A stretch of DNA of 62,254 nt, filler included, from Globobulimina sp. (lineage: Eukaryota), in assembly GCA_003354225.1 (NCBI GenBank). It is 18 parts of 18 records of this genome, joined end to end, with 100 filler letters (N's around TTAATTAATTAA, not from the genome) between each part and the next. Parts side by side here need not be neighbours in the genome. Positions count along the whole stretch, not along the records: positions 27,730 to 31,094 come from PIVH01002972.1; 17 more parts are not named here. The stretch is one strand, 5' to 3'. A program made the translations under genes and the position numbers. Shown here in pieces: positions 488 through 48,693 of the stretch (position 1 is the first letter of the stretch; each line of letters begins with the position of its first letter). The notes beneath the pieces are model-generated. The model did no database searches. It was not told the DNA's origin and worked only from the letters and a program-made list of their open reading frames with translations.

Positions 488-3289
488 TTACCCAAACCGT
501 AGTCTAAATTTTTTAACAATAAGATTTTTTTTAAAAGCACTGAGTGAACGAGCGGCTATCCTATCCTCTGTCAGCATATTCCACTGATTAACAACCCTGT
601 TAGCGAAGAAGAACTTTCTAGCATTAATACGACCTTTTTTAACTATGAGTTTAGCTGAATGACCACGTGTAACACCTTCTCTAACTTCGAAGAATTGGTT
701 GAAATCAAGGTCTATTAGATTGTTTCGCATTTTATAACACAATGATAAGTCAGCTTTAACGCGACGCCTTTCCAGAGTTTCTAAGTCTAGAAAAACGAGA
801 CGTTCGGAGTATGTCATTTTAGGTAAATTACATCTTTTTAAAATCCTACGAGTAAAGTATCTCTGAACCTTTTCAATAATTTCGATATCTTTAAATAAGT
901 GTGGGTTCCACACAGATGGACCAGATTCAACTATGGGGCGTACATATACCTTGTAGGCTCTTAGTAAGGTTGAAACAGTTTTGCTGCGAAAAACACGAAA
1001 AATAAGGGCTGAAGTCCTAATAGCTTTAGAGGAAATTATTTTACAGTGACTAGAAAATTTTAAATTATTTGAGACCGTATAACCCAAGTCTCTGATAGAA
1101 GTAACTTGTTCTAAGGGGTGATTTTCAATAGAATATACAGATTTAACGTTATTTTTTCGGTTAGAGACATTTAACGACTGACACTTTGATTTCGATAGTC
1201 TTAATTGCCATTTGTTGGACCAGTCAACAACACTATCGAGATCAAATTGTAATGCGACAGGGTCCAAGTTGGGATCATTTATTTTTCGATAAAGTTTGAC
1301 ATCGTCAGCAAAAAGTCTAATATTTGAATTAGGGACACAATCGACAATATCGTTAATATATGCAATAAAGCATGTAGGACCAATCACTGTACCCTGGGGA
1401 ACTGAACTAGGCACAGAAACTAGTGAGGACACCTCAGTACCGATGTAAACCCTTTGGGTTCGGTTTGTTAGAAACGCGGAGAGCCAACGCAGAGCTTTAC
1501 CAGTTATACCATATGCTTCAAGTTTATAGAGTAATTTTTGATGGGAAACAGTATCAAAGGCTTTTGCGAAATCTAAATATATTACATCAGTATCACACCC
1601 TTGTTGTAGGAAGGTAGTCCAATCACTTAAACACTCTAGCATTTGGGAAACCGTAGACCTGTTAGACCTGAAACCATGTTGGAACCTAGATAAATGGGGT
1701 GATAAAATGCCTAACATTGCCTTGCGGACAATTTTTTCTAATGATTTACAGACATAAGAAGTTTGCGAGAGAGGACGGTAATTAGAAACTTTACAGTTAC
1801 TACCTTTTTTAAAAATAGGGCAGACTAATGCAGTTTTCCAATCATCAGGTAATTCACCCGTATCAATTGATTTTTGAAAAATAAGGTATATCGGATAAGC
1901 AATGCCAGCGGCTATACGTCGTAATAGATAAGCTGGTAAACAATCAGGGGTACGAGAAAGCTTATTTGGTAAATTTTTTAGAGTCATAAGTACTTCAGGA
2001 ATAGAAATAGGTATAGTATCCAAATTGCCATACTTAGTACGAGTAAAATCAGGGAGATTTCCATCATCTACAGTAAAAACAGAAGCAAAATAGTTATTAA
2101 AGAGGTCAGCCTTTTTTTGGTCATCAGAAATTTCAGTATCGTTTTCATCCAGAAGTTGAGGAATTTTGCTGCGAACCTTAATTTTAGACTTGACATATTT
2201 ATAAAAGTCATTTATATTTCCAGATTGCATAATTTCGTTTTCGCATAAATCATTATAGGCATTAACAGCAGTTTTGTATTCTGTAGCTATTTTATTATAA
2301 TCATCTAAATTACCCCTACGTTTAGCAGTTTTCCATAAACGTTTTTTCTTAATAACTAGTTTGCGAATATTACTGGGGTAAACAACCTTTCTGAACACTA
2401 AACCAGATTTTTTAGGAGGGATGTATTTATTTATGCCAGCTAGAAGTATCTCCTTAAATATGGACCACATTTCTGTGACCGTATGATTTTCGAGAAAAAT
2501 TATATCCCAGTCGACAGATAAACAATATTCTGTTAAAGCTGTATAATCACCTTTTTTGTAATCGGGGGTAGATTTAAGAGATAATTTATTAGGGTTTGCA
2601 TTAGCAAAGCTGTATGAAATAGAACTTTTAATTGTTTGGTGGTCGGAAGTAGAGAAAGGGGGATCAGTTTCGCATAAACGGAAAATTTCTTTATCTGAAG
2701 TTAGTACAAGATCCAGGAAATTTTTTTTACGAGTAGGATCGGGTGCCATTTGGCTTAGACCCAGTTTGGCAAAACGGGGGTACCACGCTTCTTCAAATTG
2801 GTTGTTTGAGTGGATAATATTGAGGGGCCAATTAATACCTGGCAAGTTAAAATCGCCTACCACTAGGAGTGTACCTTTAAATTTAGCACTGATACTATTT
2901 AAAGCTGCATATACAAGTGAATCTTGAGTAACAGAGAGATTAGGTGGTTTGTAAACAACTATTAATCTGAACTTGGAAGATGAGGGTCCAAAATCAATGG
3001 CTACAAGCTCGACAGAGTCATAAAGGTTATCTAACCTAACTAGGACAGCATTGAGGCTGTGTTTGGCAAAAATGCAAACACCACCTCCTTCTCTATCAAT
3101 TCGGTCCTTTCTAAAAACTTCAAAATCTGAGTTAGAACACAGCATAGCATCAGTTATTTCCCCGTTTGCCCAGGTTTCAGTTACACAATAAATATCATTA
3201 TGTCCTAGCACATCATTATGGGTTAGTAAAATACCTAATTCAGACAAGCTGTTTTTTAGACTCCGCGCGTTAAATAATACAAAGTCCAA
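488..3289 (-). CDS. LINE ORF2: apurinic-type endonuclease + reverse transcriptase
   Basis: APE motifs NARSL, VTETW, GGGV, YKPP, GDFN, LDL, SDH. RT motifs NYRPLS, QHGFR, LDFAKAFDTV, VPQG, FADD. The frame has no ATG start. Confidence 0.95.
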   Translation of the reverse strand: MDFVLFNARSLKNSLSELGILLTHNDVLGHNDIYCVTETWANGEITDAMLCSNSDFEVFRKDRIDREGGGVCIFAKHSLNAVLVRLDNLYDSVELVAIDFGPSSSKFRLIVVYKPPNLSVTQDSLVYAALNSISAKFKGTLLVVGDFNLPGINWPLNIIHSNNQFEEAWYPRFAKLGLSQMAPDPTRKKNFLDLVLTSDKEIFRLCETDPPFSTSDHQTIKSSISYSFANANPNKLSLKSTPDYKKGDYTALTEYCLSVDWDIIFLENHTVTEMWSIFKEILLAGINKYIPPKKSGLVFRKVVYPSNIRKLVIKKKRLWKTAKRRGNLDDYNKIATEYKTAVNAYNDLCENEIMQSGNINDFYKYVKSKIKVRSKIPQLLDENDTEISDDQKKADLFNNYFASVFTVDDGNLPDFTRTKYGNLDTIPISIPEVLMTLKNLPNKLSRTPDCLPAYLLRRIAAGIAYPIYLIFQKSIDTGELPDDWKTALVCPIFKKGSNCKVSNYRPLSQTSYVCKSLEKIVRKAMLGILSPHLSRFQHGFRSNRSTVSQMLECLSDWTTFLQQGCDTDVIYLDFAKAFDTVSHQKLLYKLEAYGITGKALRWLSAFLTNRTQRVYIGTEVSSLVSVPSSVPQGTVIGPTCFIAYINDIVDCVPNSNIRLFADDVKLYRKINDPNLDPVALQFDLDSVVDWSNKWQLRLSKSKCQSLNVSNRKNNVKSVYSIENHPLEQVTSIRDLGYTVSNNLKFSSHCKIISSKAIRTSALIFRVFRSKTVSTLLRAYKVYVRPIVESGPSVWNPHLFKDIEIIEKVQRYFTRRILKRCNLPKMTYSERLVFLDLETLERRRVKADLSLCYKMRNNLIDLDFNQFFEVREGVTRGHSAKLIVKKGRINARKFFFANRVVNQWNMLTEDRIAARSLSAFKKNLIVKKFRLRFG

Positions 3290-6935: not shown

Positions 6936-9900
6936 TACCATTTAAAAATTGTGAATTGGTGATGATTAAACTAACGCCGGTCGCAGTGGCTGCAATGTCA
7001 TAATCATAGCCTATATCTGTATTATTATTAAATATCGTAGATTCAATAATTACTTTATTATCATCATCATTGACATAGATTAATTGATCATAGCCTCTGT
7101 TGTGGACAAATGCGGAGTCTCCAATATATAATTCAACACCAGACATATCAATAAAAATTAAATTATTTTCTACACCTGATCCAATTTCTGCATTGCCAAT
7201 AAATGTGCTATTTGTTATGGATACGTTTGCATAATTACGTATGTTAAACAATTGTCTGTTTTCTTGTGTGTTGTGTTTAAATGTACATTCATCAAATAAC
7301 ACATCGGCTGCATCGATATAAAACATGGCTTGGTTTGTTGTGAATGATGGAGATGTGCCCAAAGTAAGTGCATTACCCTCAAATGTACAATTTGTAAATC
7401 TTGCATTGACACCATTTGATATTTCATACATAACATCGTTGTTTGTAAAATAACAATCTTCAAATATTATGGTCACTCGATCGTCATCAAATAACCAAAA
7501 TGGTTGACCTTGTGCTGTTTGATAATTATTTCCATCAAATTTAACATTTTTTACAATTAATGTTCCACCGTTGGACACTGTTTTTCGTAATGTGTACAAT
7601 GATACGCACATAAAAAAACGTAACAAAAAAAGATATTTAACTTTCAAACTGCCGATCAATTTTACTCGTTCGGTTTGAAGCAATTGTTAAATCTTGAATT
7701 TTTAACCAGCATTTAGGCCATCTATAATAAACAACAACATACAATATAAATATACAAAAAAGCAGTCTAGACGTACCTGCATTTAATCCACGTAGACTCA
7801 GAACTATCCGAATATTGCCATATAGTCTCAACACCAACACCAGATACGATAATATTATTATCATCAAAATTTAAATGATAGGGGAAATCCCATAAACCCT
7901 CTCCCATATTAAATTCACCATTGGCATCATATTTATCACATCGTGTGGCAGGAAAACCAGATATTTCGCCTAAAAAACATGGCCAGCCATACTGCACAGT
8001 CTGGCAAGTTGGCTGATACGTAGGCGAATTGGTGGGTGGTTGGGTGGGTGCCATCGACGGAGCGTTTGTTGGTGGCTGAGAAGGTGCTCTCGACGGTGGT
8101 GTAGTAGGCGCATTGCTGGGCGCAACCGAAGGAGCTAGAGATGGGGCATTGGAAGGTGGTGAGGTGGGCGCATTGCTGGGAGCATTGGTGGGTGGCTGTG
8201 TAGGCGCAGTGGATGGTGCTATACTGGGTGGAGATGATGGTGCGGCACTAGGCGGCTGTGTAGGTGCATGACTAGGTGCGAAAGTCGGTGGTTGTGTGGG
8301 TGCATTGGAAGGATCCGGTGTGGGTATTTCTGTTGGAAAAGAGGTAGGATCTAAAGTTGGTTCTGTTGTAGGCTCTACTGTAGGATCATTAGTGGGGTGA
8401 TAGGTTGGTATTTGTGTAGGGTTAGTGGTCGGATTGTGTGTAGGATATATGGTAGGGAAAAACGTCGGATTTGAGGTGGGATTATGTGAGGGGTTATAGG
8501 TTGGTTCAATAGTGGGGTGTATGGTGGGTGTTGTGGTTGGGATATCGCTTGGTTGCATTGTAGGGTTTGTTGTAGGATGATTAGTCGGATTGGTGGGATT
8601 TACAGTGGGATTATGTGTAGGCTGTATACTCGGACTAATGGTTGGATTTATTGTTTGTGCGCTAGGATTATTGGTGGGGTTAACGGTGGGTTCAAGGGTG
8701 GGTTCATTGGTGGGAATAAAGGTAGGTTCCAAGGTAGGTTCTAAGGTAGGTTCTAAGGTAGGATCGTTGCTGGGTTCATTCGTTTGTAATAAATTACGTC
8801 TCCGCATAGAGGTTGGTGCATCTGTTTGACAGCAATGGTCATAGGCAGCACCAAGTTGTGCTATTTGATTGATGCATGCATCTGCATAATCTGTCGATGA
8901 CGCCTGGCAATCTGTATATATTATTTATTTATTGTTGTTTGGGTGTATATTGTTTCTGGAAACATCCCAAAGTGTATATACCTGCATAATCACATCCACT
9001 CTTGCGGACATATACAAATTTCAGGGTTAATGTAGGTGCATTTGTGGGCGCACCAGGTTTATATGACGGTGCAATGCTGGGTGCAACGGTTGGTGCAGTA
9101 GTTGGTGAATATGATGGATTTAAACTAGGACTGACACTCGGATTTAAACTTGGCGCTAATGACGGTGCTTGGGAAGGAGCTGTGGTGGGTGCTGTGCTGG
9201 GTGCATTGCTAGGAGGCATTGTGGGATTATGTGTGGGATCGACTGTAGGTATTTGTGTGGGATCACTGGTTGGTTGGAATGTAGGTGTAGTGGTTGGATT
9301 ATCCGTGGGTTCAGGTGTAGCTATTGCATCACATTGTATCTCTAGATCACCAATAAGATGTCGTTCTTTATTGTCATTCATCTTAGATCGAAACTTAACG
9401 AAAAAGTCAACGCCTCCATCTTTTATACCGATAGCTATGTCGGGCTTGTTCTTGTACTCCCAGTCATATAAACTATCACATCTTGACTCACCTATCCCAG
9501 AAATACTATCTTTAAATGTATCGTCGTCAACTTCAATATCCCACAAATCGTTTGTAGTAGCAGCCATACCGTCCGATCTAATTAGTACACCATCGACATA
9601 TAAGTATAATTTGTCAGTTCCCTCTCCTTCGTCACAATATGCTAATAAATATGAGATATACACATTGGATGTTTCAGCACATTGAAAATATCGTATCATC
9701 TGATTATATTGTCCATCTCCACTACCTTCCTTTTTAAACCAGCCATGATATTTATAGGGATTACCTTGAACAGTCGGGTTGCCTAAATCTAAATTTCCAT
9801 CTTTCTCATTATATAAATACCAACCATCTCTGTAATTTGTTGACTGCGAATAATCATCAGTCCATACTCCATCTATTACGGTTGTTGCTGATTGTATTAA

Positions 9901-9969
9901 ATTTGGTAATACAAAGTATAGTAATAATCGATGCATATGATATTTCACTTTGTGATTTCGAAATAACAA
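6936..9969 (-). CDS. Secreted Pro/Thr/Ser-repeat (PT-repeat) protein with C-terminal right-handed beta-helix (pectin-lyase-like) repeats; multi-exon
   Basis: Signal-like MHRLLLYFVLPNLIQS, two long PTxxPT/APS blocks, and repeats of type xFxNCxFxxN. ORFs 8929-9969, 7767-8807 and 6936-7683 are separated by short AT-rich introns. Confidence 0.8.
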
Positions 9970-10402
9970 TAAATATTTTGAATAAGAATAAAACTACAAT
10001 AAGAGGAATAACGTTATTTGAAAAATGTCGACAAGAAATGTCTCTTTGCTGTTGCTTGATACCGGTTGTTTGTCACGTTGACATGCTGTTCAGTAGGTTG
10101 CTAACATTTTTTTTGAAAATATTATTTTTAACAAGACACTTTCAAATTTAATTAATCGTCATAACAAACAAAGTTCTAATAAAACGCGTTTAAAGCAAAA
10201 GCTATTAAATAATTGGACAAAAAGCATCAAGAATGTCAAATAACTCCATAGAATTTTCTTTTATTTTGATCATTTTTTTATTAACAAAATTAATGAGATC
10301 CANNNNNNNNNNNNNNNNNNNNNNNNNNNNNNNNNNNNNNNNNNNNTTAATTAATTAANNNNNNNNNNNNNNNNNNNNNNNNNNNNNNNNNNNNNNNNNN
10401 NN

Positions 10403-27628: not shown

Positions 27629-27729
27629 TNNNNNNNNNNNNNNNNNNNNNNNNNNNNNNNNNNNNNNNNNNNNTTAATTAATTAANNNNNNNNNNNNNNN
27701 NNNNNNNNNNNNNNNNNNNNNNNNNNNNN

Positions 27730-27865
27730 TCCGGAAAGAAAAACAGGTCGTAGAGACAAAACCTCAGGGTCGGTTTGTCTGAGTGCAGTAATTTCTGCAA
27801 GTGTATCATCTACCAGTTCGACAGCCTGGCCAACATATCGTTCAGGGTGATCCAGAGACTGTAAA
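27730..27865 (-). other. Probable 3' end of a different gene (adenylosuccinate-lyase-superfamily-like C-terminus) joined in frame to the sulfatase
   Basis: Abrupt rise in GC. LDHPERYVGQAVELVD resembles the L.P..Y.G.A...V C-terminal motif of the purB/ADSL superfamily. Confidence 0.5.
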
Positions 27866-30826
27866 TCATCATCATTGTGCACGTTATAATTATTTACAGT
27901 GTTTGGTGGATACCATTTATTTAAATATAATGCAGTTAATTCAATCGAGTCAATATTTAACATTTCAAATCCTTTTTTAATTCGAGCAAAATATTGAGTC
28001 TCAGATAAAAACGGTGTAATAAATGATCCGCTGTCATCACCATTTTTATCTGGATCACCGATCGGCAATCTATCCCATAGAAAATGTATTGGTTCGTGGT
28101 ACAATTTATTATCAGTAACACCCTCAAATAAATGCATTGCATATTTAACAATTTCATCAGATTCATTAGCATTAAATAATAAATTATTCTCTTCTGATAT
28201 ATCATTGGTTAAATCAAATAAATACTTATCATCAACAGCTTGTGACAAAGGTATGTTCTGCGCATAAGTTATAACATCATGGCCATCACACCAACCATCA
28301 ACATTATTATATTGCCATTGATCAATCGAGCTATCCTCAGCAAAATATTTATATAAATTACTATTATTTGGATATGTAAAAACAACTGATGCCGATTGTA
28401 ATGATTGCAAACCAACATTCAATATGATATTATCTCTTTTGTTATATGCATCTCCATGCATTATCATTTCATACTGATTTATGCCATCCCATGTTTGATG
28501 AGTATCATTTATGTCATTTAAAATGCCAGCAAATGACAATAATGTCGGTGTCCAATCTAATGAACTAAACAATGAATCTCTTTTTGTTCCTTTTATACTT
28601 TCCGGAATCACACCGCCTGAAATCAATGCAAAAGTTCGCGTATTACCATCAAACAAAGTGCCTTTCGTCCCTCGTAACGGATAATTACATCCTCCCTTTT
28701 CTATATCCCCTCCATTATCAGTCGAAAATATTACTAATGTATTTGCCCATAAATCAGCATTCTCTTTGAATTTATTCATTATATCACCAATAATTTCGTC
28801 TGTATATAATATATTTGTGCAATATTTTATCCTCTGCTCCATGCTCAGTGTACTCTGTTTCCCCAAAGCTGCTATTTCTTTGCATCTCTGCTCGTACGCA
28901 TTGATATGAATCAATGGAACATGCATTGTTTGCAATGCTAAATACATATAAAATGGGTCAATATTATCATCAATATTGGCATCATCAATATACTCAAATA
29001 TTTTATCTCGGAATAAATCCATAGTATTAAAAGAAGTTTGTGTCGAATTTATAAAACATTCTTCTTCATCTTGAAAGAAATCATAATGCGAAGTATCGCC
29101 AAATTCGATATCTTTATATTTCAATGTATCATAACCGATCGCGCCTTGATAAAAACCATAAAAGTGATCAAAGCCACGGTTTGTGGGAGTAAACGCATCG
29201 ACGGCATAGCCCATATGCCATTTGCCCACAGCGAAAGTTTTATAGCCACCAACTGACTGTAGCCAATTTGCAATGGTTGGCTGCCCAACCGGAATGCCAC
29301 CAATTTCTGTGTAATCCCAAGGCAACATTTTGCCAAACCCCATATTGTGCGCATAGCGGCCGGTGATAAATTGTGATCGCGATGGACTGCACATTAAATG
29401 CGAATAATGCCTCTCCAAACTTATCGACTCTGCGTATAAATTGTCAATATTTGGTGTGGGATATTGTCCGCCATTAAAACTCACGTCGTTCCATCCAACG
29501 TCATCCATTAAAATAAATACAATGTTAATATTACTATCATCACTAGTTTTTGTTGCTGGTTCTGATGCTGTGTCAAACCACTTATTATCACGAATCAGCT
29601 CAGCTGGACAGGACTGTGATACTAAGGATTCGTCATAAAATGTACCAATGTCATATACAACTCCCCAATCAGCAAAATCCCACAACATTCTGGGTGTGAT
29701 ATCAATTTTGGATGCAAGCGACCATGCTCTTGTGGATAAAAAATCAAATCCATACTTATCATCTAATTCAATAATGCCGCATTCATCGTATCCCGTAGCA
29801 CAGGCTGCAGTGTATACATTTGGATATTCCCCGATTGCATCTGATGATATAATACTATATCCATTGCAAGTTGCCCATAATGCACGTAAATACGCTGTGA
29901 ATGAATGTAAAAGCATAAAGATGGGATCATCGGGAGAGTAACCAGTCGCCATCGCACATTCTGCACATGATCTGGCAAACAACCAATGAACCTGTTGATG
30001 TTGCTCAACAATCCCACCTTTAAAGGTTAAGAAATCGGCGCGTTGTAACACTTCGCCAATTTCTGGTGCGGTTGACAATACTATTTGTGAATCGAGCGGA
30101 TGGTCAACACTTAAGCTTCGTTTTAAACAACAACCATTTTCAACATTCTCTGTGTCAGCACAAAGTACTTCATCCTTTATTGGCCAATTTTCAACGCTCC
30201 ACAAAGCAGTATCCAAACAATAATTATTTTCCGGGTTACCGTCGCCACCAAATACTGTATTCAATACAAATGGAGATGACTCGAAACCGGCATCAACGGA
30301 CCAATCATAATATGGTAAAGCAAAACATTTAAATTTGCCACCTATGGCTCGTATTTGACTGTATGTTATGTGATATATTTAATGGAAGTAATATATTTGC
30401 CACATATGGCTCGTTAATTGTATACTAACAAAAGACTGTTAATTAATAGGTCAGATATTTCAAATCTGTTGCTCAGAATCCTCAGATGGAAACGTTAAAA
30501 TGTCAGAGCTTCCGTTACATACAAAATCAGAACCATAATTATATATTACTTAACGTTTCAACCTCCCAAACTAAATACGTGTGCCAGAAAAAAAATGATG
30601 AACCACGATGTATCATCGTATGTGCTGCATGATCGTCGAGAATAACTTGATATTTACCATTTTTCCGAATTCTTTGCAATCCTTCGACGTATAACATTAA
30701 TTCTGCTGTTGATAACTGATGAATTGGTCGTCGAATACGATTACATTCCTCTTCTAAATATATGCCATGGCCAGAGCCAGCAATTAACTTTATTAATATT
30801 GCGGATATTAATAATAAACCAACCAT
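27860..30826 (-). CDS. Secreted tyrosinase-domain + arylsulfatase fusion protein; intron 30359-30554
   Basis: Signal peptide; CuA H..H....FFFWH, LPYYDW, CuB HQQVH...SPDDPIFMLLHS. Then NIVFILMDDVGWNDV, CSPSR, GKWHMG, RGFDHFYG, STDNGG, NYPLRGTKG in one frame. Confidence 0.9.
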
Positions 30827-31488
30827 TTTGCTTTAAACAACCTATATAATATTATATATTTATTAATAATATCCACATAACACATCTTGTCAATCACTAA
30901 ACAACCATCATATTAACCAGAATCAGTACAATGTGCATCATTTAATGATGAAAGTTTGAGAAATTTCTGTTTTAATATATAAACATGCAACAAAAAAAAA
31001 GACCGCTAAAAGACCGATGATTAGTATCATGTTTAATATATTTGATATCCATGTTGTTTTTTTATTTGTTTATTTTTATTCTGTTTACTCAGATNNNNNN
31101 NNNNNNNNNNNNNNNNNNNNNNNNNNNNNNNNNNNNNNTTAATTAATTAANNNNNNNNNNNNNNNNNNNNNNNNNNNNNNNNNNNNNNNNNNNNTTGTGT
31201 CGTGATTTGTGGTTTGGTGCTGAATGTTCTTTGGTGTTGTTGTTGTTGTGGATATTGCTGTAGTTGGTGCTGTATCTGGTGATGATACGTTTTGTGGATT
31301 GGCTCAGCTGAGCATGTTGACGTGTTCTTGTTGAGTGATATTGCCGTGAAGTCATAGTCAATCTGTTTGAGAGAACTCAATTAATTCAAGCAGAGTCTGT
31401 CGCAATATGTTCCATGTAGTTTTGCTGATGGCTATAAAAATAATGTTTTTGATCAAAAAAAAACATTTCTTAGTGCACTAATTCGACA

Positions 31489-39974: not shown

Positions 39975-41484
39975 TCAATCAAATTCGGTTAACTCAGTCC
40001 ATGTATGCAATTCAAAAGGATTATCAGTTTGTTTTTGATAATGTCCAGCACTGTCACTCTCATTTTTCTTTTTCTTTTTTTTCTTCCTCTTTTTCTTATC
40101 TTTCTTCTTTTTCTTTTTCTTTTTTTTCCCGCCAGCATCCATATTATTATTACCACCGCCCACCGCAACCTCCACTGCTTCCGTACTGTCATTATATTGA
40201 GCTGTTATTTTCTGTTTATTCGCATTATAATACTCCTCATCATTCGACAAATCACTGCTATCGCCATTGCCAACCAGTCCTCCTCCCATTGTCAGTCCGT
40301 CATCAAAATCATCACTATCCTCTCCATTTAACTGCATTTCCTTATCACTTCTCCTTTTTTTACCTTTCCTCTTTATTTTTGGTCGCTCATTTCCTTGCAC
40401 AACACTCTCGATATCCTTTCCCTTGCTCCAATATCGCCATCCACAACAAATTAGACATATAAATACAATCAAAATAACAGCACCTATGAACAATGCATAC
40501 CTTCTGCCGCCCTTCGCGATAATAGCAACACTCGGTGATTGTGTCGGATTTAATGTGGGCTCCATGGTCGGTTCAGTGGTTGGAATTATTGTTGGGACCA
40601 ATGTTGGCCGTGTTGTTGGGCCTATTGTTGGTGGCCGGGTTGGAATATTTGTTGGCTGAATGGTTGGATATAAGCTCGGTTCGATGGTGGGTTCAATGGT
40701 GGGCTCAATGGTGGGATAGAAGGATGGCTCACTTGTCGGTCTTTTATATTCTTTTGTGGAGCACAAATGTGTTTCGTCCGTACAATCCCATGTGTTATCT
40801 ACAATGTTATTTGAAATATCACAGGAAAAGCCATAATTTTGAGTGCAACTCATTGTACTGCCTAATATAACAGTATCTGTATCATAATTTGCTACAAATA
40901 TATCTTTAAATGCATGGATTGCATATATATGAATGCCACCAGTTTTTATATCATTATTGTCCTCATAGAATAGGCCTTTACCTTTTGTTATTAAAAATTT
41001 ATTATTTAATATTTTCAATGTATACATTTATATATATATACCCGGTAAGAAACAACGAGGTCCATTATTATCATTTGGTGGACAATACACAGTTAAATCT
41101 TTACAGGGGAAAGGGCCAGACCCTTTACCTCCACATTGTGATATATTTAATAATTTGGATTTTAGCGCTGAAATAGTGAAAAAATCGCCGCAGGAATTCT
41201 CACCATAACATGCTAAGTTACATTCAATACTTTCATCACAATCAACATATGCTTTTAAACACGCATCTGTTCCTCGACAATTTATATTTGTGGTGGTGTT
41301 TGTAGCTGCATGGATGGTGATATCTGCGCAGGTATCGTGTATTTGTGAAGTGGAGGTACAATTAACATTACATATAGCATTGGACGGACAAAAGACTTTA
41401 ACACTATCGCACGATGACTCTCCCGTACAATCGAGAGTGCAACTTTTGGCTGAGGTGCAATTGATTGTTGCTCCCAGACATGAT
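39975..41484 (-). CDS. Single-pass membrane protein: Cys-rich repeats, PT-repeat stalk, TM helix, poly-Lys cytosolic tail (5' partial)
   Basis: C....SC..ATINC repeats at 41220-41484, PT.EPT repeats, TM YALFIGAVILIVFICLICCGW, KKKKKKKKKDKKKRKKKKKK. Confidence 0.75.
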
Positions 41485-45047: not shown

Positions 45048-45347
45048 TACATAGAGAGGAGCCGGATGGCTGTTTTTATTCAGATCCAGATATCGATGGG
45101 CCATCAATATCACTCATGTCCAACATACAAACAAATGAAACAAAACCATGCAAACAGACAAATAATGTGTCAACAGAAATAATAACATCAAAAAACGAGT
45201 CCATACCCGCACCAAAATGCATGATTAAAAAGACAAGTCCCAAGACATCGGGTATGTTGGAATCGGGTATGTTGGACATGAGTGATATTGATGGCCCATC
45301 GATATCTGGATCTGAATAAAAACAGTTATCCGGCTCCTCTCTATGTA
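45048..45347. repeat. 81-bp inverted repeat (45048-45128 / 45267-45347) with 138-nt spacer
   Basis: The arms are reverse complements apart from 2 adjacent mismatches. Confidence 0.95.
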
Positions 45348-45875
45348 AAGTAAAGGTATACTATAAATTATATTATTACATTAAATAAACTTAACATTTT
45401 ACGTGTTTGCTTTGCATTGCTGTAAATATTATTATTATTATTACTGTTACGTTTTTGTGGTAATTTAGCGGTGTTGAAACCAACTATTTTTGTCTTTGTT
45501 TGAAAAGATAGTTTTGCTCGTTCTTGAAGGGACATATTTTTATGATATCCACCATTCCTTCTCTTGGGGATTCTCATCGATGATAATGACGATGCAACTC
45601 GAGCTGGTGCTGCTTTTACGGTGTTTCGGAGCTGCTTTTTGACGGATTTATTCTTATTAAAGGTATTGCAAATGGGTTCCTCATCACTGTCTGAATATAA
45701 ACACAACATTTTGTTTATTTGTCCATCAATATTTTATTTATTCAAAGTGTAATCCATCGAACATAATGTTTTCTGCGAAGTCAACTTTCAACATCAACCA
45801 CAAAAACCTTTTCTTTATCCTCATCCCCTTTCGCATCACACCGCAACTCTAATATCCAAAGCTGCGCATATAACC

Positions 45876-48097
45876 ATGCAACAAATGGCAACCTTATCGT
45901 TGCTATTGTTTGGCTGTGCCTATAGTCATTCAATAATGCATCGTTCCTATCCATCGCCAGAAGGCACTCATCATGGAAAAAGTGCAGAATATTTCCATAG
46001 TATTCGTTCGCAGCCTGCAGACTCGTTAGCAGACCGATTCAGCGAACAATACGCCAAAGTAGTCACCAATGGAAAAGCAAATGGCTATCTCAGCTCAGAT
46101 GGCGTACCATATCACAGTGTCGAGACCCTAATGGTGGAAGCACCCGATTACGGCCATGAAACCACCTCGGAGGCGTATAGTGAATATGTATGGTTGACGG
46201 CGATGAATATCTGGGCCTCTGGCGGGAAGACCGCCGATTTCGAAGCAGCGTGGCGATCATTGGAAACCTATATCATTCCATCAAGTTCTGATCAACCGAC
46301 CTGTTCCGCATACAATCCCGCCACGCCTGCGAGCTATGCACCGGAAGAAGACAAACCCTCCGATTATCCCGTCCAAATCGACAGGAATGTGGCAGTGGGT
46401 CAGGACGACTTAAACGACGAATTGGCGGCGGTCTATGGCAGTGGCGGCAAATTAAACCAATTCTATGCCACGCACTGGTTATTGGACGTGGACAACGTGT
46501 ATGGTTTTGGCAAGCATGGGTCCGGCAACAAAGGCGATAAAAACGTATATGTCAATTCCTATCAACGCGGCTCAAATGAGTCCGTATGGCGAACTGTGCC
46601 GCAGCCGGAATGGGAGTCGTTCAAATACGGCGGAGTTAAGTTTCTGAAAACATTCTCAAACTGCATATATACGCAAAGCCGCACTAAATTATACAGGATT
46701 GCGGTTACTTGGAACTGGACATTTACGATCCGGAGTATGCGTGCGATGAACAGTGGCGGTACACCGGCGCACCGGACGCCGATGCAAGAACCATCCAAGC
46801 CACGTATTGGGCGTACAACTTCAGCAAAGGCGGCGCCTCTACGCAGGTGCAGAACGCGGTGAAGTTGTCTGATTTTATCCGCTATTCCATGTTTGATAAG
46901 TACTTCAAAGTCGTGCCTTGCTATTCCCCCAATTGCCCCGCCGCGAAGTTCCAGAATGGCTGGGATGCCACTTTTTATTTAATTTCGTGGTACATGGCGT
47001 GGGGCGGCCCCATAACCGACACGTATTGGGGATTTCGCATCGGTTCGTCGCACGTTCACCAAGGATACCAAAACGCGTTGACGGCCTATGTGTTGTCGGC
47101 AATTCCGGCGTTTGCCAGTAAGACGTCGGGCGGTAAGGGCCAATGGGAAGCAGTGCGCTACAAAACCATTGATTTCTGGGAGTGGCTGCAAACTGCGGAG
47201 GGTGCCATCGCCGGCGGCGCCACCAATTCGTTGAATGGGCGGTATGGCGACCCGCGGCAAGGCGGCATCACCGGCTATTTTAGCAACGGGATGGCGTATC
47301 AATGGGAGCCGGTTTATCACGATCCGCCCAGCAATGACTGGTTTGGAATGCAGGCGTGGAGCCAGGAGCGGAATGCGGAATATTGCTTTTTGACTCGCGA
47401 TGGCCGCGCATGCGGCATAGTGAAGAAGTGGGTGGCTTGGGTCCTGTCGCTGTCGTCTAAGATCATTTTGGCGAACAATGACTATGCGGTTCCCTCCAAT
47501 TTGCAATGGCGCGGACAGCCTACGAATTTCACAGGTTCGCCGCATACGAATCCTAGTTTGCATGTTTCGATTGTGGATTATAGCAAAGATGTGGGCGTAG
47601 CGTCGGCATTGGCGCATGCTTTGACGTATTATGCGGCGGCTTCGGGCGACTCGGCGTCGCAGACCATGGCGAGAGAGTTATTGGACCGCATTTATATGTA
47701 TGCGGATAACATCGGTGTGGCGGTGAATGAGTCGCGAGCGGATTACATTGGTAATGAGTGGGGACAGGGCTTCTGGGAACCGGTCTATGTTCCGGCAAAG
47801 TTGCCCAATGGACAAGCGATCAATTTTGGGTCGTATCCGAATGGGGATGCTATCAAACCGGGGGTCACTTTCTTGGATATTCGGTCGTGGTATAAAAATG
47901 ACAAAGATTGGCCCAAAGTGCAAGCGGCCAAAAATAGTAATACTCCGCCGGTATTTAAATATCATCGAATGTGGGCACAAGCGGAGTTTGGTATTGCTGT
48001 GGCGGATTATGCGCGTTTATTTGGTAGCAGTTCAGAGTATTTTGTGGGGCATGATAATGATTTATATTTTACTGACCCTCATTATAAATCAAGGTAA
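45876..48097 (+). CDS. Secreted glycoside hydrolase family 48 (cellulase-type), intron 46635-46696, spliced product 719 aa
   Basis: Signal peptide; GVPYHSVETLMVEAPDYGHETTSEAYS, HWLLDVDNVYGFG, QRG.NESVWRTVPQP, QWRYT.APDADAR, WLQTAEGAIAGGATNS, PVYHDPPSN.WFGMQAWS, YHRMWAQ. Removing the 62-nt GT-AG intron restores the frame. Confidence 0.96.
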
Positions 48098-48693
48098 ATA
48101 GTTGTAATATAATATTTTTCTTTTTTTGTAATATTAAGTATAATTAAATTTAATATTCTCTTCAAACAAAACTTGTCAAAACGAGTCTTATAATTAAATG
48201 GTCACAAACGATCCCTGTCTTTTTGGAGTTAAAGATAAAATGGCAAAATTTCTCACTCTAGTTGAAAAAAATTTTACCAATTTTCTATTTGTTATCATAT
48301 CTTTCTTATCTGTAACTTTTATTGTGAGGGGGAGTCTGTACTCTTTTAAGGTTGAAAACCATTCACTTCATTATGCAGTGACTTTGGCTATCTTAGGGGC
48401 AATCTATGTNNNNNNNNNNNNNNNNNNNNNNNNNNNNNNNNNNNNNNNNNNNNTTAATTAATTAANNNNNNNNNNNNNNNNNNNNNNNNNNNNNNNNNNN
48501 NNNNNNNNNGTCAAAACGAAGAATTGAAGTCTTTCCTTTTAGAACCTATCTGATTAACACAATACACACACAATACAACAACACAAAAGTCTAGAAAAAT
48601 GACGAAAGAGTCAGTGTGGTCATCCCTACAATAGAAATCGCAAGAATACTAAAATTAATACAAGATACAATCAAGATAGAAGTCATTGACTAT

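Follow-up and report, generated by a model that had tools for sequence, protein, structure and literature searches.

A rare tyrosinase-sulfatase fusion gene from the foraminifer Globobulimina sp.

Type-3 copper tyrosinases and formylglycine-type sulfatases both belong to textbook enzyme families, the name 'arylsulfatase' being a historical one. The described systems closest to the gene reported here are the compact bacterial tyrosinases on one side and, on the other, human N-acetylgalactosamine (GalNAc)-4-sulfatase (ARSB) together with the carrageenan 4-sulfatases of bacteria. What is new is the fusion of the two enzymes, which occurs in two sequences only among the matches listed in our searches. 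One of the two is a gene of Globobulimina sp. (assembly GCA_003354225.1) located in a 62,254-base stretch of DNA, hereafter the window, where it encodes on the minus strand of its contig a signal peptide, a tyrosinase, a linker and a sulfatase, in this order. On balance, we lean towards reading it as a spliced foraminiferal gene for two active, tethered enzymes that reach one matrix or compartment as a single secretory polypeptide, and we value the fusion mainly as a hint that two expanded families of foraminiferal ectoenzymes are functionally linked.

Gene structure and the junction

The fusion gene lies on a contig of 3,365 bp (27730-31094, 35% G+C) and is read there as two exons separated by one intron (Table 1). 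Its hydrophobic N-terminus covers approximately residues 1-19 (30826-30770), with a hydrophobicity of 2.95 over 12 residues, and exon 1 contains the sequence ...DDHAAHTMIHRGSSFFFWHTYLVWEVET. The intron interrupts codon 91 (between AC and T) and with it the tyrosinase module, and the splice is backed by relatives, as both the stand-alone tyrosinases and P0003, a protein of 532 residues that is 78% identical to the window protein and truncated at its C-terminus, continue as ...VWEVETQIRA... exactly over the join. Because the intron is 196 nt long, the two exons lie in different frames. The first-pass annotation of this locus had described a single-gene fusion, in one frame, of a secreted type-3 copper tyrosinase with a formylglycine (CSPSR) sulfatase. 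The fusion itself is borne out, with both catalytic sets intact and both Pfam domains in one translation; the CuB half of the tyrosinase does share a single frame with the linker and the sulfatase, but CuA, which exon 1 encodes, lies in another. The end of the gene, formerly placed at 27860, has to be given up, since the frame continues without a stop up to 27730, at which the contig gives way to an N spacer, and the 3' end of the gene lies off the contig. Over positions 27730-30357 of the minus strand the coding frame is free of stops for 876 codons, versus 43 and 113 stops in the other two frames. Third codon positions have a G+C content (GC3) of 0.30 in the tyrosinase and 0.28 in the sulfatase half, and the codon frequencies of the two halves correlate at 0.77. 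The intron contains 23 nt that nearly repeat the first bases of exon 2 (30330-30352 versus 30392-30414, 91% identity, 62 nt upstream); a small duplication could account for this, or the stretch could serve as an alternative acceptor.

Table 1. Features of the fusion gene, in positions of the window
Feature	Position	Strand	Description
Exon 1	30555..30826	-	ATG at 30826, signal-peptide-like start, CuA histidines (translation P0002, 91-codon stretch)
Intron	30359..30554	-	196 nt, donor GTTAAGT at 30554, acceptor ...ACAG ending 30359
Exon 2	27730..30358	-	Single open frame, 876 codons (P0001): rest of tyrosinase, linker, sulfatase, tail
Tyrosinase module	29575..30754 (intron included)	-	About residues 25-352 of the spliced protein
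CuA histidines H66, H73, H82	30631-30629, 30610-30608, 30583-30581	-	In exon 1
CuB histidines H211, H215, H242 (spliced numbering)	30000-29998, 29988-29986, 29907-29905	-	In exon 2
Linker	29527..29574	-	16 residues, DTASEPATKTSDDSNI, polar and acidic
Sulfatase module	27892..29526	-	P0001 residues 278-822
CSPSR formylglycine motif (C323-R327)	29391-29377	-	S1 sulfatase C-x-P-x-R
Tail	27730..27891	-	After the sulfatase, in frame, of unknown nature

From a comparison of the two fusion sequences, we hold with high confidence that the join is genuine and not an assembly artefact. P0003 shares with the window protein its signal-peptide start, its exon join and its junction, in which ...NKWF is followed by the linker and then by ...NIVFILMDD..., and it matches both the PF00264 and the PF00884 profiles. 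Its linker is longer and rich in Ser and Asp, and both linkers are in frame; the recurrence of the same in-frame junction with a different linker length therefore makes two independent chimeras very unlikely, and the objection that the linker is a chimeric junction fails on the same ground. An artefact, whether an assembly chimera or neighbouring genes with separate transcripts that are read through only on paper, could be argued from the small contig and the fragmented assembly, from a locus read from genomic DNA alone, and from the last 131 nt, which have 47% G+C versus 34% in the neighbouring sulfatase and C-terminal coding stretch (27861-29530). The junction shared with P0003 nevertheless makes this account highly improbable, as do three properties of the locus itself: a tyrosinase on its own would have no stop codon, a sulfatase begun at the first Met past the linker would lack the signal peptide of its stand-alone relatives with a complete N-terminus, and both composition and third-position G+C are uniform over the join. 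As to the last 131 nt, their third-position G+C of 0.295 is similar to that of the coding part, and they have no plasmid match and no second copy in the window.

The rarity of the architecture was assessed in libraries of billions of predicted proteins, and the counts refer to the matches listed, with proteins of up to 1,533 residues. P0003 was the only protein with both domains in the whole-protein search (one of the 120 listed out of 524) and again in the search with the tyrosinase region (one of 16). The junction-region search yielded 73 proteins, all shorter than 481 residues and none with both domains, the best of them reaching 58% coverage on one side only. From the best 150 of 38,537 matches in a representative library of 1.84 billion, 30 that were long, fell into several stretches or reached the junction were scanned with Pfam, and none contained both domains; those with several stretches were tandem sulfatases. 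Similarly, the 30 matches among the named clusters of the ESM Atlas were all sulfatase-only. The combination of tyrosinase and sulfatase is real and very rare, P0003 being its sole other example among the matches listed, in line with the first-pass annotation, which knew of no described protein of this kind. No publication on foraminiferal tyrosinases was found among the titles and opening lines of the abstracts listed.

The two enzyme modules and their relatives

The tyrosinase half matches Pfam Tyrosinase (PF00264) with 36.3 bits (cut-off 22.6) over residues 11-162 of P0001, which covers exon 2 only; exon 1 has no Pfam match by itself, and P0003, which holds the full module, reaches 62.6 bits. 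A search of NCBIfam profiles gave sub-threshold matches only. The copper-binding histidine columns are invariant in the non-gap rows of 28 aligned tyrosinases, at 22/22 for each position of CuA and 27/27, 28/28 and 28/28 for those of CuB, and of 105 columns conserved in at least 90% of stand-alone relatives the window tyrosinase keeps 96, the changes being conservative. After CuB comes a Cys-rich C-terminal extension of about 110 residues that ends in ...NKWF and is conserved only in the foraminiferal family. In the model of P0003 the tyrosinase (about residues 25-350) has block means of the predicted local distance difference test (pLDDT) mostly above 90, with a dip to 62-74 at residues 131-170, and its fold is closest to the tyrosinases of Streptomyces and Bacillus/Priestia, with template modelling (TM) scores of 0.69-0.72 on the target. 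The four-helix bundle around the dicopper site was found on this 78%-identical model only, the AlphaFold model of P0001 having been made without exon 1, and hence without the CuA part, with low confidence in its tyrosinase half.

The sulfatase half matches Pfam Sulfatase (PF00884) with 171.9 bits (cut-off 25) over residues 278-612 of P0001. Its catalytic and metal-binding set is complete, with all ten residues (D285, D286, C323, R327, K379, H381, H479, D547, N548 and K565 in P0001 numbering) aligned residue by residue to the human 4-sulfatase. The module also keeps 131 of the 136 columns conserved in at least 90% of 27 stand-alone relatives, and neither this half nor the tyrosinase looks decayed. 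Residues 278-822 are modelled as a single compact unit with block-mean pLDDT mostly above 90 and a lowest value of 75; the top fold match is the human 4-sulfatase 1fsu (TM 0.85 on the target, E-value 1.9e-33), the next are S1_19 and S1_16 carrageenan 4-sulfatases, and the sequence search ranks them likewise. In the sulfatase tree, however, the 29 foraminiferal-type rows are grouped apart from the seven animal ARSB-like ones (support 100 for either group), which places the window sulfatase, as far as its sequence tells, with the ARSB type but outside the clade of ARSB orthologues. Removal of 4-O-sulfate from galactose-type sugars, as suggested by analogy with these relatives, is only a lead for its activity. 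A formylglycine-generating enzyme domain was absent from the 19 open reading frames (ORFs) scanned in the window, which consists of 18 short contigs only.

Between the last conserved motif of the tyrosinase and the first strand of the sulfatase stands the linker, for which the corresponding residues of P0003 (354-374) have pLDDT below 50. It is short, variable in length and predicted to be disordered, and nothing about it points to a fixed channel that connects the two sites. This bears directly on the function proposed in the first-pass annotation, namely that desulfation of aryl sulfates feeds phenol oxidation. In such a coupled cascade the sulfatase would unmask aryl-sulfate phenols or catechols, such as tyrosine-O-sulfate, the sulfated phenolics of algae and seagrass or a sulfated catechol precursor, and the adjacent tyrosinase would oxidise them at once for cross-linking or detoxification. 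Enzyme fusions often mark consecutive steps, S1 sulfatases commonly act on small aryl sulfates, and their standard test substrate yields a catechol; moreover, both active sites are intact, and a tyrosinase that is modelled without a C-terminal shielding domain could be reached by free phenols. Nevertheless, we judge the cascade, though chemically feasible, unlikely and the proposal unsupported, as every one of the sulfatase's nearest relatives with a solved structure is a sugar 4-O-sulfatase, the linker has the properties just described, and stand-alone paralogues of both families far outnumber the fusion, so that any such pathway would as a rule depend on separate enzymes. No literature was found that links tyrosinase and sulfatase in foraminifera or Rhizaria, and we know of no sulfated phenolics in organisms of the foraminiferal type. 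Nor was any literature found on dopamine 3-O-sulfate in sclerotization, for which a precedent may exist in insects.

Where relatives of the two halves carry an organism name, the name is that of a foraminifer: Elphidium margaritaceum (MMETSP1385), Rosalina sp. (MMETSP0190) and Ammonia sp. (MMETSP1384), the identifiers being paired with organism names in the accessible part of PMC6783311. In the sulfatase tree the window protein and P0003 form a sister pair with support 100 nested in the foraminiferal-type clade of 29 rows, and in the tyrosinase tree they again pair with support 100 and group (support 96) with the stand-alone tyrosinase of Elphidium and one unnamed protein. The nesting of the pair in both trees therefore indicates one fusion event inside two otherwise separate families. 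The gene would have arisen once, when the ectodomain of a type I membrane tyrosinase, up to its last conserved motif, took the place of the signal peptide of a type I membrane sulfatase.

The ends of the stand-alone relatives suggest where these enzymes go. Those with a complete N-terminus have a hydrophobic leader. Of the 24 stand-alone tyrosinases, 23 have a membrane-like span near the C-terminus, as do 23 of the 28 sulfatases; in the short tail past this span, a Yxx-hydrophobic motif follows in 19 of the 23 tyrosinases and 20 of the 23 sulfatases that have one. Both stand-alone families are type I ectoenzymes that probably travel to the same place, and the shared tail motifs point likewise to one common place. 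Yxx-hydrophobic motifs are classical adaptor-binding signals for endocytic and lysosomal sorting. In animals, ARSB resides in lysosomes, and tyrosinase is a type I membrane protein found in a lysosome-related organelle. The fusion might accordingly be a digestive or defensive enzyme of the phagosome and lysosome, sorted by its tail to the endolysosome, where the sulfatase would help to break down sulfated prey polysaccharides (from algae, bacteria or mucus) and the tyrosinase would make quinones or melanin or neutralise dietary phenols, and the nearest bacterial fold matches are indeed sulfatases of algal carrageenan. We see this as a possible, if somewhat doubtful, alternative: the window gene's own tail lies off the contig, and the accessible text of a foraminiferal test-matrix study reports proteins like arylsulfatase B from the test matrix, an extracellular material (PMC11648905). 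The endolysosomal account also overlaps with the explanation we favour, and sequence cannot cleanly separate the two.

A further motif, YG[STA]-hydrophobic, stands at or near the C-terminus past the span in most tyrosinases and several sulfatases (P0031-P0042, P0129, P0133, P0015, P0016, P0019, P0025, P0026 and P0125). Judged by its recurrence, it may be a shared sorting signal, and we know of no description of it.

Proposed function and genomic surroundings

In the explanation we favour, the polypeptide would run from the signal peptide through a compact, lid-less tyrosinase of bacterial appearance and a short flexible linker to a complete ARSB-like sulfatase and a C-terminus that lies off the contig. 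By extrapolation from the stand-alone relatives, the missing end probably consists of a stalk, a single membrane span and a sorting tail of the Yxx-hydrophobic kind. Both domains would be competent and would stand side by side with no channel, and the fusion would deliver them in equal amounts to one lumenal or extracellular place, either an organic matrix in which sulfated glycan is combined with protein, as in a test lining or an adhesive, or an endolysosomal compartment that processes such material. There the sulfatase would strip O-sulfate from galactose- or GalNAc-type sugars, and the tyrosinase would oxidise tyrosine or other phenols to cross-linking quinones. As the role of the fusion we prefer the maturation of a matrix, or else the turnover of material made of sulfated glycan and protein, with the cell surface or an endolysosomal compartment as the site. 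In its accessible text, a proteomic study of a foraminiferal test matrix reports several arylsulfatase-B-like proteins and names glycosaminoglycans as a major component of the matrix, and the organic wall or adhesive put forward in the first-pass annotation would fit with such published matrices (PMC11648905). Marine adhesives, according to the part of a further source that is accessible, commonly pair sulfated polymers with catechol chemistry (PMC6262867).

Several points weigh against this preferred reading. Tyrosinase occurs nowhere in the accessible text and two supplements of the same matrix proteome (PMC11648905), and the idea of a shared matrix is therefore backed on the sulfatase side only. 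The specificity of ARSB is not transferable to the window sulfatase because the foraminiferal clade is separate from the animal ARSB-like one. P0001 shows no membrane span along its 876 residues, the best 19-residue hydrophobicity being 1.21, and the frame ends at the contig edge about 50 residues past the point where the span of the relatives starts. Neither structure model holds both complete domains, as P0003 is without most of the sulfatase and P0001 without exon 1, and the gene model itself was drawn from genomic sequence and relatives.

At the end of the frame, a 39-nt GT...AG element (27897-27859) is bounded by GTAAAT and TTTACAG and has complementary ends that form an inverted repeat. 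This element and the G+C-rich end may represent a very small intron, another exon or an end of foreign origin, the first of these being only a guess from the element itself.

As a 'Rosetta stone', the fusion argues that the expanded membrane tyrosinases and ARSB-like sulfatases of foraminifera act in the same place. Foraminiferal tests and cements are built on a matrix of protein and sulfated glycosaminoglycan whose enzymology is almost unknown, and foraminiferal shells underlie much palaeoclimate work; the gene is thus a candidate for matrix maturation and, for biochemistry, a compact natural two-enzyme protein. A bolder version, an 'uncage and cure' enzyme, would have tyrosine or catechol groups masked by sulfate, on matrix proteins or on small precursors, freed and oxidised on site, hardening the test lining or cement. 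The masking, which would block early oxidation, is a long shot, as is the version as a whole; if true, it would be a new route to controlled quinone tanning that links sulfation with phenol oxidation in a protist. If the two domains are merely co-delivered, the fusion is a modest curiosity of domain shuffling.

The window is made up of 18 pieces of about 3.4 kb each, apparently sorted by length, and is not continuous genome. Its pieces are joined by 17 spacers (for example 27630-27729 and 31095-31194), each consisting of 44 N, the 12-base all-frame stop word TTAATTAATTAA and another 44 N, which gives 34 runs of exactly 44 N. Since the spacers separate contigs, gene adjacency across them is meaningless. 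The genes to the left (HMG-CoA-lyase-like) and right (PPP phosphatase) of the fusion gene sit on other contigs, and genomic context from flanking genes was dismissed for this reason.

Several other features of the window were recorded. An ORF on another contig (5403-6434, plus strand) has a Sulfotransfer_2 domain (PF03567, E-value 2e-10) of the carbohydrate-sulfotransferase type and no solved-structure relative by sequence; it suggests that the organism makes sulfated glycans, possible substrates of its many sulfatases. A gene for glycoside hydrolase family 48 (45876-48097, plus strand, on contig 45048-48409) is split over two overlapping ORFs with Pfam E-values of 8e-78 and 4e-142, and positions 46001-48000 have about 52% G+C versus about 32% elsewhere. 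This gene looks bacterial and could be a contaminant, a recent transfer or a frameshifted copy. The remaining features are a LINE-like retroelement ORF of 933 residues with endonuclease and reverse-transcriptase domains (488-3289, minus strand), ORFs of disordered PT (Pro/Thr) repeats at 7767-8807 and 39975-41027 (both minus strand), and a region, 8001-10000, with 43% G+C and a strong skew of G over C (0.31).

Comparison with known systems

Like the compact bacterial tyrosinases, namely Streptomyces MelC2 (6j2u, 1wx2) and TyrBm of Bacillus/Priestia megaterium (3nm8, 4p6r), the fused tyrosinase has a type-3 copper centre with six histidines in a four-helix bundle, and in the model the foraminiferal module appears without a C-terminal lid domain. 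Unlike them, it is eukaryotic, with a signal peptide and an intron, shares only 17-23% identity with them, and carries the Cys-rich extension of about 110 residues found in the foraminiferal family. The NCBIfam profile of MelC2 matches P0003 weakly, at 49 bits, far under its equivalog cut-off of 450 bits. We know of no caddie-like partner for the window tyrosinase.

Human ARSB (1fsu) is also the best sequence match of the window sulfatase (E-value 5e-49), which has in common with it and with the bacterial S1_19 and S1_16 carrageenan 4-sulfatases (6bia, 6b0j, 6psm, 9hh3 and 9fo1) the CxPxR motif and the full catalytic and metal-binding set. In contrast to ARSB, with which its identity is only 26% in the structural alignment, it has a C-terminal elaboration of about 170 residues (approximately 650-822) that is conserved in the foraminiferal relatives, and a tyrosinase in the place of the signal peptide.

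Joined ectodomains are met elsewhere among the relatives as well. P0030 (510 residues) contains the end of one tyrosinase module, about ten residues, and then a second, complete tyrosinase module, and by this evidence the tandem joining of ectodomains appears as a recurrent event in the tyrosinase family. Relatives with several sulfatases, such as P0124 and P0181, have their ectodomains strung together by short linkers, like with like only. The closest comparison is with the stand-alone enzymes of foraminifera, the Elphidium tyrosinase P0031 and the sulfatases P0013 (Elphidium) and P0014 (Rosalina), which are 45-55% identical to the matching half of the fusion and collinear with it over each whole module. 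Each of them consists of one catalytic module with its own signal peptide, whereas the window gene joins two ectodomains.

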